From NCBI RefSeq assembly GCF_030013205.1, contig NZ_CP122649.1: a stretch of 64,000 nucleotides of DNA. One strand, given 5' to 3'. The position numbers are program-made. Of the stretch, positions 45,001 through 48,000 are shown one piece after another; within the stretch, counting starts at the first letter, position 1; each line of letters begins with the position of its first letter. The DNA comes from Escherichia coli. GTDB taxonomy: Bacteria > Pseudomonadota > Gammaproteobacteria > Enterobacterales > Enterobacteriaceae.

Positions 45001-48000
45001 TTACCGGTATGATCATAAAACCTTACTTAGCTTGCAGGTGCTTTCGGTTCTCGCTAAAAAAGAGGCAGCACAAAGCCTGTACATATATTTTGAGGCGATG
45101 CCTGCCGGTACGTTATTCGTAAGCATGAAGCGTTTGCGTGAGCGACTTCTGTTGACGACTCCTGTACGAACTCAAAACCAGATCATCAGGAAGGCGATGC
45201 TGGAGTTAAAATCAATAGGATATCTTGAATATCAAGAGGTTAAGAAAGGTAGAGATATCCAGTTCCAGATTTTTAAAAGAAGTCCAAAACTTGCTCTGGC
45301 AAAACACAGTTGATGCTCCGGGTATAGTACGCACAAAAGTTACTTTGGATGTAATGAGGAGTATGGGCATTCATCCAAATGCTTTTTAATGTTTCTCCGG
45401 ATTTGAACACCCTTCCCTGTTTCCAAACTTCCTATCATTTCTGATACCCGGGTTCTTCTGGTATTCGTTCGAATGCTTTTCAGAAAAAATCATGCTTGCT
45501 AGTTGAGACAACGTAACCTATTCATTTTGCTAGTTTAATAAGACTCATTCATACATATGCCTTTAACTACACTACCCTCCATCGTGTTGTATTGGGCTTT
45601 AAACGCAAATCCCTATACTCCTTGTGCCACTCGGCGTATTTACAGTTCCTTAACGCCTGCAAACGACTGGGATATGAGCCTGGTCGACGGCATTTTATGA
45701 ATATGCAGGCCAATGAAGGACCTAGAGAAATAACATAACATTCTGATAATAAATGAAAATTACTCAAATTGGATATCAAGGAGATGAAAAGCATTTGTTT
45801 CAATGGAGAGCAAAAAAGTGCCTTTTGTATAAAAGCATTTGCTCCAATGGCGGCAGAAAAGTGCCTTTTGTATAAAAGCATTTGCTTCAATGGCGGCAGA
45901 AAAGTGCCTTTTGAAAAAAGCATTTGTATGAATGCTGCGGTGAAAGTTGCTTTTGGTCGGGAAGCAGGGCTCGCAAGGGACAGTGTAAGGTGCCTTTGTT
46001 CGAAAAGCATTTGCACGAATAGGAGAATGCAAGTTGCCTTTGGTCGGAAAGCATTTGAATGAATGGGGAAGTGTAAGTTGCCTTTGGTTGGAAAGCATTT
46101 GCATGAATGAGTCCCTGATAGGTGTCTTTGTTTGAAAAGCATTTGCATGAATGGATTCAGAAGAAGTGACTTTTACGATAAGCATTTGAATGAATGGGCA
46201 CCGCAGACGCGCATTCCCCAATCAGCATTTGAATGAATAAGCTCCGCAGTTTTGCTTTCATCGAACAGCATTCGTATGAATGTGCTCCGCAGAGGTGGCT
46301 TTCATTGAAAAGCATTTGTATGAATGGGGGATACATAATCCTTGTGGGTGAAAAGCACTCGCATCAATGGGGGAAAAGTGACTTTTGGAATGTCATCCTT
46401 ACCGTGTCCTTTGTTAAATATCTGGCTGGATGAATGCCATAAAAATGGTAAAGGGGCAGACGATGCCCCTCTTCCCTATTTGGCATGTTAATTAAACGCA
46501 CCTTCTTTAATCCGATTACATGCGGGATTCTTTTCTGACATTCGATGGCTAAAAAAACACCAAGCGCAATTAAGTCAAAAAAAGGTGGTTAACAGAAAAA
46601 TGAAAGAAAAATAAAAAGTATTATGCCAATGCGTTTTCGTGAATTCAAATCAACACGGAGTAATTATGGAACTGACATTGAATACTAACGTTGAAAGAGG
46701 AAAAACTAACGCTTTTGCATTTTTGAAGTCCAAACATGCAAAAGTGCCTTTGTTTATTCTCTTGGTTTTAGCAAATTGCAGTTTTGCGTACGCGGGTTCC
46801 GATGATGGAGCCTTCGGCGATATCTGGGCCTACATGAGCGAAGCCTTGACTGGTGCGCCGGGTAAAATCATCGCGTGCGGCATGTTGTTCTCGGTGGCTT
46901 ATTTCGGCGTTGTAAAACCTAACCTTGGTTTGGCGCTGGTATCAGCATTAATGATGCTGGTTATGGCAAACGGTGAAAAAATTATCAGCTCGTTCCTGGA
47001 TGCTGGTATTCCTCTGTGATTTGTTAGAACAATAACAATGAGGGGGATATTCCCCCTCTGTGGAGTTTTTATGACAAGCCAGTACGAGATACCGCCACAT
47101 ACATATCGCTTTCCATACAGAATAAATATGCCGTTACTAATTCTATTCTGGGATGCAAAGCAATTGGGTATAACATTCGTGACTATCGCGAGCGGTAATA
47201 TTTTTGATTTCTTTATAACTTCGGTAGTTGTGGCGGTGGTGTTCTGGTTTGCATATAAGAAAGCAGCAGAGGAAGGGATTAGAGGAAAACTAAAACACAA
47301 ACTGTGGTGGTACGGCTTTTTTCCTGGAAAATCGGTGTTTAGTAGTCGTTACTTTACCGATCCATTTATCAGAAACCTCTATTCTTGATGGAGCTAAGAA
47401 TGAAACTTCTCAGCAGGTTAAAAATTCCATTCATTAAAAATTCCAGTAATGGCGATTTTGATAACAAGGATGAGACTTCGCAAAAAGGAGGTGAAGAAGT
47501 AAAAGGAAGTTTTCTGGATTCAAAAGCACGCTTTAGTAAAGAAATTGAAGGTTCTGAAATTGGAATTACATATAGTGCATTGATTAAACGCGACGAAAAA
47601 CTCCTACGTGTGAATACAGTTGCAATGATCATTATTGGGGTTCTGGTTGTAAAAAATCAATTTCTCACTGATCCTGTGACTATAGTGCTACCGCCAAATA
47701 TGACGGAAGAAGTCAAAGTTGTTGGAAATAAAGCCTCAGAATCATATAAAACGCAGTGGGCCTTATTCTTTAGTACTTTGATTGGAAACATAAACCCAAC
47801 AAACATCGGTTTTGTTACAACAACTATATTGGATGCGCTTTCTCCGGATTTACAGGCAAAGACCCGGGAATCACTACAGCAGCAAACCAATATAATGCAG
47901 GCTCGTGGTGTAGAGCAGTCATTTAAGCCGATCGATATGTATTACGACACCAAAAATGACATGGTCTATGTCTGGGGAACAAAGTCAACTCGTTTGATTA

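Follow-up and report, generated by a model that had tools for sequence, protein, structure and literature searches.

An unusually long tandem iteron array downstream of repA in the RepHI1A replicon of an IncHI1 plasmid backbone

IncHI1 plasmids such as R27 and pHCM1, which are carriers of multidrug resistance in Salmonella Typhi and E. coli, hold three replicons. One of them, RepHI1A, has been on record since the 1990s and was reportedly described for R27 by Newnham and Taylor in 1994. A related layout is known from P1, in which DnaA boxes, a GATC cluster, iterons spaced 21 bp apart, repA and downstream iterons follow one another. The downstream cluster of P1, incA, lies right after repA, and its annotation is that it binds RepA and determines incompatibility. 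It begins at the repA stop and holds 9 iterons in 285 bp, with a spacing of 30–41 bp. pMT1 of Yersinia pestis carries 13 downstream iterons in ~540 bp, and for seven of these the spacing is a regular 40 bp. A downstream iteron cluster is also found in the RepFIA-like incC of R27 and in F incC. The R27 cluster is in part a tandem array, whose 55-bp units contain two iterons apiece. Band shifts with the E protein showed that the R27 RepFIA-like incC, a locus distinct from the RepHI1A array, binds its initiator, and plasmid stability depends in part on it (Tassinari et al. 2016, PMC4853401). RepHI2A of R478 has twelve 80–81 bp iterons ~500 bp from rep (PMC8490738), and the same source cites Page et al. 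2001 for RepHI1A(R478) of IncHI2. Our searches on RepHI1A/IncHI1 iterons, with the primary RepHI1A reports outside their reach, returned no published account of the array or of the palindrome motif described below.

We analyzed a 64-kb stretch of E. coli DNA, hereafter the window. Judged from its sequence, the window is IncHI1 backbone, and over 200 IncHI1 plasmids match it at 99.9–100% nucleotide identity. Its second rep gene encodes a RepA that is 100% identical to R27 RepHI1A (R0036, WP_001282731.1; R27 39480–40355), and the flanks and the adjacent trhA of Tra2 are arranged as in R27. In R27, R0036 is repHIA and R0034 is trhA (PMC7366339). By this identity and synteny, the rep gene and its repeats are the already known RepHI1A replicon of R27 and not a new replicon. 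Pfam placed the initiator in the Rep_3 family through Rep3_N (PF01051, 4.4e-09) and Rep3_C (PF21205, 0.0019), corresponding to WH1 and WH2 winged-helix domains, and NCBIfam gave no match for either RepA of the window (RepHI1A, RepHI1B). Identity to the RepA proteins of P1, pMT1, and FIB(K) was 43–46% (P1 44%, pMT1 43%). The features of the locus are collected in Table 1.

Table 1. Features of the RepHI1A region, with positions in the 64-kb window
Feature	Position	Strand	Basis or remark
Two tandem DnaA-box-like 9-mers (TTATCCACG, TTTTCCACA)	44168–44185	+	Outer origin edge; each matches TTATNCACA at 8/9
GATC (Dam site) cluster in AT-rich DNA	44191–44237	.	Four GATC in 47 bp; 10-bp repeats AGATCAAGAG
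Four origin iterons (incC-equivalent), directly 5' of repA	44303–44385	+	Spacing 21, 21, and 23 bp
Third DnaA-box-like 9-mer (CTATTCACA), repA side of origin iterons	44388–44396	+	Sequence match
repA of RepHI1A (291 aa; Rep_3 initiator, WH1 + WH2)	44438–45313	+	Pfam, R27 identity
Near-copy CAAAAGTTACTTTGG of plasmid-wide palindrome GAAAAGTWACTTTTC	45334–45348	.	21 bp 3' of repA stop
Inverted iteron 1	45368–45385	-	Pattern search; perfect consensus match
Inverted iteron 2	45462–45479	-	Pattern search; 3 mismatches
Inverted iteron 3	45546–45563	-	Pattern search; 2 mismatches
Tandem array, 14 slots of 42–44 bp, 13 with good iteron	45786–46395	+	TRF, pattern search
Slot 5, iteron half degenerate (GGGAAGCAGGGCTCGCAAGG), second motif kept	45959–46001	+	14th slot, inside 87-bp gap
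Junction of 88-bp deletion relative to R27 allele	46136–46155	+	20-mer AAAGCATTTGCATGAATGGA, slots 9 and 11 of 16-slot form
Palindrome-like GAAAAGTGACTTTTG in last array unit	46373–46387	.	Similar AAAAGTGACTTTT in IncHI2 between last iteron and trhA
trhA (pilin; first gene of Tra2 AC operon)	46666–47019	+	Replicon-region boundary

The DNA upstream of repA resembles a P1/RepFIB-type origin, with DnaA boxes, an AT-rich GATC cluster, and iterons about two helical turns apart. The four origin iterons are all direct and start at 44303, 44324, 44345, and 44368. The order of elements through the downstream iterons is that of P1. The DnaA site of oriR sits at the equivalent position, its five Dam sites match the GATC cluster of the window, and its 21-bp-spaced iterons likewise overlap the repA promoter region. 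The RepHI1B replicon of the same window (30641–32180) is built on similar lines, with a RepA 35% identical to that of RepHI1A, five origin iterons spaced 21 bp apart, and a further nine iterons downstream. However, its iteron (ATCCACTATACCGGGTA) is unrelated to the RepHI1A iteron, and most of its downstream copies are inverted, with uneven spacing (17–104 bp) and without a tandem unit.

To count iterons, we searched the whole 64-kb window with the 18-bp pattern AAAGCATTTGNNTGAATG, allowing up to 3 mismatches. The pattern matched 21 times with 1.13 matches expected, and 0 of 100 shuffles reached 21. All but one of the matches fell within 2.1 kb (44303–46369), with 4 in the origin, 3 inverted, and 13 in the array. 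The long run of iterons that the initial annotation had seen downstream of the second rep gene is therefore real, in the same position as P1 incA, and the repeats are indeed the iterons of the adjacent Rep_3 initiator, since origin, inverted, and array repeats have this one 18-bp consensus in common. Its extent had been given as 45360–46400, with over 14 tandem units of 43–44 bp. The tandem part begins at 45786, and the DNA between 45360 and 45785 contains only unique sequence and three inverted iterons, the inverted copies noted initially as nearer to the gene. TRF reported period-43/44 arrays at 45786–46155 and 46092–46326. The units are tandem, as claimed, but number 14 slots of 42–44 bp, and the 13 direct iterons run from 45788 to 46352 with a mean spacing of 43.4 bp (range 42–44 bp).

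Within a slot, an iteron of ~20 bp is followed by ~8 bp of free spacer, then by the 12-bp second motif AAAGGTGCCTTT, and finally by a tail of 4 bp. The proposed division of every unit into two halves held for the iteron half in 13 of the 14 units, but the proposed second half, AAAGTGCCTTTTG, was exact in units 1–3 only. When up to 3 mismatches were allowed, AAAGTGCCTTTTG was recognizable in 9 of the 14, and when up to 2 were allowed, AAAGGTGCCTTT was found in 10 of the 14. Relative to 10.5 bp per helical turn, the 43.4-bp period drifts by ~1.4 bp per unit. The array iterons thus lie on different faces of the helix, and helical phasing makes no simple case for cooperative binding. When 43900–46800 was scanned against Rfam for structured RNA at E ≤ 1, the sole match was to a lncRNA and attributable to chance, and consensus scans for promoters and terminators found no excess over shuffles.

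We compared array lengths in related replicons, and all of them (P1, RepHI1B, IncHI2, and pMT1) carry a downstream iteron cluster. The RepHI1A locus of the window has 16 iterons over ~1,030 bp, three of them inverted, with a 240-bp gap and a strict 43–44 bp tandem arrangement. Unlike P1 incA, it also has a second conserved motif in each unit. Its description as exceptionally large is fair against P1 incA and RepHI1B, with 9 iterons each, but less so beside pMT1 with 13 iterons, R27 with 16 slots, and the sister lineage of IncHI1 with 17 slots. The regular run of pMT1 is mostly inverted relative to its origin iterons, has fewer units, and showed no obvious second motif. The R27 RepFIA-like incC differs in its initiator (RepE), in its iteron (TGTGACAAATYRCCCTCA), and in having nine iterons that are not interleaved with the RepHI1A array. 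RepHI2A of R478, as described in PMC8490738, is similar in having a long, many-unit tandem iteron array away from rep on an IncHI plasmid, but it belongs to another replicon, has another unit length, and lies on the start-codon side of rep. Classical IncHI2 plasmids have a RepHI1A with the iteron consensus of the window, a RepA 86% identical, and the same synteny, and they carry ~10 irregular iterons of mixed orientation and no tandem array. This observation indicates that the tandem array is a lineage-specific amplification and that a replicon of this type can do without the extra units.

Across 33 units from the two lineages, the iteron columns held 1.44 bits per column, the spacer 0.24, and the second motif 1.0. 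The interior units of the two lineages could not be aligned one to one, but their iterons were still near consensus. Retention of the iteron columns next to decayed spacers argues for RepA binding to the array iterons, and, together with the unalignable interior units, points to purifying selection on the iterons. By analogy, the array probably serves RepHI1A as its downstream locus for copy control and incompatibility, functionally equivalent to P1 incA. Its most likely role, on the same analogy, would be titration of RepA and handcuffing for copy control, with incompatibility. RepA monomers (Rep_3, WH1 + WH2) would bind the 18–19 bp iterons, and the 16 downstream iterons (3 inverted and 13 direct) would titrate RepA. 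RepA-mediated pairing, or handcuffing, would join the array to the four origin iterons ~1.7 kb away, both in cis and between sister copies, and would stop origin opening as the plasmid concentration goes up. The predicted outcome is a very low copy number of the RepHI1A replicon and incompatibility with any plasmid sharing RepA and iterons, IncHI2 included. The tight copy control, strong incompatibility, and handcuffing suggested initially may thus apply to this array, as P1 and RepFIB would lead one to expect. The array is real and unusually long, but it would be an ordinary copy-number and incompatibility element, and the current view of iteron plasmids is unchanged. Its strength bears on why IncHI1 plasmids stay at one or two copies, on how replication work is divided among the three replicons, and on interference between IncHI1 and IncHI2.

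If plasmids identical elsewhere had varied freely in their number of units, this would have spoken against such a role, but no such variation was seen. Approximately 219 IncHI1 records formed two discrete alleles, with ~178 records having 14 slots and 41 having 16 slots, the latter being the form in R27. The 14-slot allele of the window equals the R27 allele minus two units (88 bp). In the 59 records of the sister lineage, we found only length differences smaller than one unit (spans of 1501–1533 bp). The sequence behind an apparent +100-bp allele, in pGD27-31, has an N and is partly duplicated, which suggests an artefact of assembly. Tandem amplification of one iteron-bearing unit, in an ancestor shared by IncHI1 and the sister lineage, would have produced the 43–44 bp regularity, and the window allele would later have lost two units when identical iteron cores recombined. 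The comparison is of modest use as a case of a P1-like control locus enlarged by tandem amplification in one lineage. With 14, 16, and 17 units, the discrete alleles provide a natural dosage series against which models of titration and handcuffing can be set, and array length is a simple marker for IncHI1 sublineages.

These alleles also bear on whether the array is mostly a neutral satellite, in which a one-iteron unit was amplified by slippage or unequal crossing-over and the extra copies have no selected function. The two-unit deletion allele is the commonest form in databases, one to two slots per array already lack an intact iteron, and the near-identity of units 1–3 points to recent duplication or gene conversion. 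Additionally, the array is missing from IncHI2, with its identical replicon type and synteny. However, neutral decay would hit all columns alike, which is at odds with the contrast between iteron and spacer columns. Furthermore, 14–17 units have been kept through ~14% divergence of the flanks, and the length of the sampled sister-lineage records varies by no more than 24 bp, which is short of one unit. We consider a mostly neutral satellite very improbable.

We also weighed whether the array might be a different element altogether, either a partition centromere or a protein-coding gene, and hardly any probability attaches to this reading. Plasmid centromeres do typically have tandem direct repeats, but the array repeats are the same iterons that form the origin beside repA. 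The nearest parA/parB genes lie 13 kb off at 59420–61677 and have a 53-bp tandem repeat array of their own at 56859–59157. RefSeq records do place ORFs, annotated as hypothetical proteins, within the array. However, these ORFs change strand, position, and length from one record to another among pHCM1, R27, and the sister lineage (minus strand, 114 aa; plus strand, 92 aa and 61 aa), and conservation between lineages is lacking. NCBIfam holds no match for them, and the length of the indel, 88 bp, is not divisible by three.

A model with RepA only, as preferred here for the iterons, leaves the second conserved motif unaccounted for. One reading takes the unit as bipartite, with a RepA iteron and the 12-bp palindrome AAAGGTGCCTTT for a second, dimeric factor that couples replication control to another plasmid function. 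Candidates for this factor are a protein recognizing the palindrome GAAAAGTWACTTTTC and a regulator of the trhA (AC) transfer operon. We regard such a two-protein unit as unlikely. It would draw on the conservation of the motif, well above that of the adjoining spacer, and on its near-palindromic form, AAAGG-TG-CCTTT. However, a left-half iteron into which 3 bp have been inserted, in one orientation or the other, is an equally good reading of the motif, and outside the array the 12-mer was not clearly enriched (14 matches versus ~7 expected). The motif is not an interleaved RepFIA iteron either, as TGTGACA and CCCT of the R27 incC/incB iterons are absent from it.

The palindrome GAAAAGTWACTTTTC occurs ~16 times over the 64-kb backbone, mostly in intergenic positions. 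Its near-copy after the rep stop, noted at the outset, is present, and IncHI1, the sister lineage, and IncHI2 all keep it at this position. Units at the two ends of the array agree with the scattered palindrome at 12–13 of 15 positions, but the interior units agree at only ~9 of 15, and IncHI2 has the palindrome copy without any tandem units. The array also adjoins the AC operon, whose temperature response is opposite to that of repHIA (PMC7366339). It is accordingly conceivable, though doubtful, that the array acts as a hub tying RepHI1A copy control to a plasmid-wide GAAAAGTWACTTTTC regulon or to the temperature-regulated trhA operon. Against a link to trhA, the conserved promoter region close to trhA is found beyond the array, on its downstream side, and not within it; ~90 bp 5' of trhA are kept across IncHI1, the sister lineage, and IncHI2.

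The 2.4-kb region of the array matched over 200 IncHI1 plasmids from Salmonella, E. coli, Klebsiella, Citrobacter and other hosts, among them pHCM1 of S. Typhi CT18, at 99.8–100% identity. The 291-aa rep product was 100% identical to the protein encoded at 39480–40355 of the IncHI1 prototype R27, and trhA, which heads the Tra2 'AC' transfer operon, adjoins the rep gene in R27 and in the window alike. The R27 transcriptome paper lists R0036 as repHIA and R0034 as trhA (PMC7366339). Because of this identity, adjacency and naming, the replicon of the array is RepHI1A, which is long known. 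RepHI1A RepA belongs to the Rep_3 initiators and has both a WH1 and a WH2 domain. It shares 44% identity with P1 RepA and 35% with the window's other Rep_3 initiator (30780–31661), presumably RepHI1B. The replicon was reportedly characterised by Newnham and Taylor in 1994.

The sequence of 44100–46700 was inspected directly, and the first half-motif of the initial annotation, AAAGCATTTGNNTGAATG, was searched with up to 3 mismatches across the whole 64-kb window and compared with shuffles. This pattern gave 21 matches against ~1.13 expected, a count that none of the shuffles attained, and 20 of the 21 fell within 44303–46369. The downstream region holds 16 iterons in ~1,030 bp. The initial annotation had described more than 14 tandem units from 45360; a tandem iteron array is present, but it starts at 45786 and comprises 14 slots (repeat positions of 42–44 bp) with 13 good iterons. 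The second half-motif AAAGTGCCTTTTG, expected in every unit, was found exact in units 1–3 only and recognisable in 9–10 of the 14, while the palindrome near-copy described just past the rep stop is real (45334–45348).

Features of the RepHI1A locus and related repeats in the window
Feature	Position	Strand	Remarks
DnaA-box-like 9-mers, two tandem	44168-44185		outermost origin element
GATC sites, four			all four inside a 47-bp stretch
Period-21 array	44302-44376		Tandem Repeats Finder
Origin iterons, four		direct	after GATC sites, upstream of rep; spacing 21, 21, 23 bp; AAAGCATTTGNNTGAATG search
Third DnaA-like box			between origin iterons and repA
Inverted iterons	45368, 45462, 45546	-	AAAGCATTTGNNTGAATG search
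Period-43/44 arrays	45786-46155, 46092-46326		Tandem Repeats Finder
Array iterons, thirteen	45788 to 46352	+ (direct)	spacing 42-44 bp, mean 43.4
Fourteenth slot	45959-46001		concealed in double-length gap; iteron half decayed, second half intact
GAAAAGTWACTTTTC copies (15-mers)	957, 1075, 7601, 13839, 15116, 19004, 21938, 29085, 30423, 36045, 41541, 45334, 49426, 51319, 51735, 62624
53-54 bp tandem arrays	56859-57107, 57907-59157		~4.6 and ~23 copies, roughly 90% identical
parA, parB	59420-60673, 60670-61677		just downstream of the 53-54 bp arrays

The annotated order in the P1 record is a DnaA site, five Dam sites, five iterons (incC), repA and nine iterons (incA). The five RepA iterons of incC are spaced at 21 bp and overlap the repA promoter, and the nine RepA iterons of incA occupy 285 bp as an incompatibility determinant. 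The window shares this order of DnaA boxes, GATC sites, iterons, repA and downstream iterons. Its downstream iterons are ~1.8 times as many over 3.6 times the length. In size and regularity the array exceeds the P1 paradigm. Since these parts are homologous to those of P1 and RepFIB, the array is most probably the copy-control and incompatibility locus of RepHI1A. In P1, titration and pairing with origin iterons are the established mechanism of incA. By analogy, we infer that the array would bind and titrate RepA and would pair with the origin iterons ~1.7 kb distant, in cis and in trans, shutting off initiation. With this many more sites, the RepHI1A replicon is predicted to be under strong negative control, which would suit a three-replicon plasmid of very low copy number. 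Cross-incompatibility with IncHI2 is also predicted from the shared iteron consensus.

Downstream iterons of each relative were counted with that replicon's own iteron consensus. RepHI1B and P1 each carry 5 origin and 9 downstream iterons, Citrobacter plasmid L008 (RepA 61% identical) carries 5 and 3, respectively, and pMT1 of Yersinia pestis (43%) has 13 downstream iterons in ~540 bp, seven of them at regular 40-bp spacing. The rep-to-trhA distance of R27 is 88 bp greater than that of the window, and R27 carries a 91-bp diagnostic insert; it therefore has 16 slots. The sister lineage, ~300-kb Citrobacter, Klebsiella and Enterobacter plasmids with RepA 96.9% identical, has 17 slots, of which two are degenerate. 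The array had been called exceptionally large; it ranks among the larger arrays of the family but stays within the range of its relatives and below the R27 prototype allele. The second P1-like replicon of the window (30480–32180, presumably RepHI1B) has a GATC cluster, five iterons (ATCCACTATACCGGGTA) at 21 bp and mostly inverted, irregularly spaced downstream iterons. The RepFIA-like incC of R27 (L015, NC_002305.1 156548–156848) is partly tandem, with three 55-bp units of two iterons each, nine iterons in total and IS1 directly beside it.

Classical IncHI2 plasmids have a RepA 86% identical and the same rep-then-trhA synteny, and Tandem Repeats Finder detected no 43–44 bp array in them. Their control region holds ~10 irregularly spaced iterons that share the consensus and lie in either orientation. 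Since the tandem array is missing from IncHI2 despite the same synteny, it is an amplification, specific to one lineage, of a unit that contains an iteron. It dates to the ancestor shared by IncHI1 and the sister lineage, in which the control locus had been an ordinary P1-like one. Two additional units (slots 9–10), with unique spacer sequences, distinguish the 16-slot form, whose slots 9 and 11 have the 20-mer AAAGCATTTGCATGAATGGA in common. Unit 9 of the window is a 9/11 hybrid, so the window allele has lost two units through recombination between iteron cores. In PLSDB, the 14-slot intergenic region (1,353–4 bp) was found in ~178 records and the insert of the 16-slot form in 41, which together account for the ~218 records whose RepA is at least 99% identical. 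The 17-slot region was covered in one piece in 59 of 60 sister-lineage records, whose lengths differ by just 8–24 bp among the records listed. Unit number among near-identical plasmids thus falls into discrete alleles and does not vary freely; free variation is what the initial annotation had named as contrary to its reading.

An apparent +100 bp allele in pGD27-31 (L011, NZ_MN232190.1) was rejected. It is a 99-bp partial duplication of the first array unit (locus 775–874) that includes N, and is probably an assembly artefact. Sister-lineage sequence L004 (NZ_CP026242.1) carries at 3760–3800 a microsatellite CCCTGCTTCC in ~4–5 copies and an additional 32 bp, both missing from IncHI1, aligning to window ~45415–45450 between the first two inverted iterons. 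In L012 (NZ_LR890350.1 282425–286306), an IS3-family element replaces repHI1A and the three inverted iterons, and the complete 16-slot array and trhA are kept, a naturally occurring case of the array lacking its initiator gene. The plasmid NZ_CP049968.1 also has IS3 in the replicon region.

To compare the parts of the unit, the mean information per column was computed over an alignment of 33 units, drawn from the 16-slot and 17-slot arrays. The iteron (columns 2–20), spacer (22–28), second motif (29–40) and tail (41–44) gave 1.44, 0.24, 1.01 and 0.41 bits per column, respectively. Between the two lineages, orthology remains in the end units only; interior non-iteron segments are 30–75% identical with no diagonal, and the unique flanks are ~86% identical. 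All columns were initially identical, so near-consensus iterons beside randomised spacers indicate purifying selection on the iterons, as a RepA-binding array would predict, and make a purely neutral satellite unlikely.

The second motif was conserved well above the neighbouring spacer. Its consensus AAAGGTGCCTTT is a near-palindrome (AAAGG-TG-CCTTT), and the end units carry the motif as GAAAAGTGCCTTTTG or GAAAAGTGACTTTTG, matching the palindrome GAAAAGTWACTTTTC at 12–13 of 15 positions. This 15-bp palindrome has ~16 copies in the window (six perfect) against 2.6 expected, of which ~11–12 are intergenic, often 50–200 bp upstream of gene starts. One copy lies 21 bp past the repHI1A stop, a position conserved in IncHI2, and another precedes the RepHI1B origin. 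GAAAAGTWACTTTTC looks like the operator of a putative plasmid-wide regulator; our literature search found no paper containing the sequence. The second motif could be a remnant of the ancestral unit that was amplified, one to which some plasmid factor still binds, or a half-iteron, as it resembles the iteron's left half plus a 3-bp insertion. It could also help to regulate the adjacent trhA operon, but the conserved trhA-proximal 90 bp sit downstream of the array and the 12-mer has no clear enrichment elsewhere. Its identity with the iterons of the R27 RepFIA-like replicon was rejected after comparison. CAAAAGTGCCTTTGT at 46739–46753, within the part of trhA that encodes the N-terminus, matches the second motif AAAAGTGCCTTT with one mismatch to the 12-mer consensus, which may be due to chance. 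The accessible literature gave no description of the lineage-specific amplification, of the 14-, 16- and 17-slot alleles or of the conserved second motif, which are new details of modest weight.

The array region had no family match in Rfam and no excess of promoter- or terminator-like sites. The 'hypothetical proteins' annotated in the iteron array were rejected; their strand and extent vary among records and they have no family support. A centromere is an unlikely role for the array, as the par genes lie 13 kb off with their own 53-bp repeat array. The 53–54 bp arrays are probably the IncHI1 Par1 centromere or incompatibility repeats, and several small 'hypothetical' ORFs are annotated inside them.
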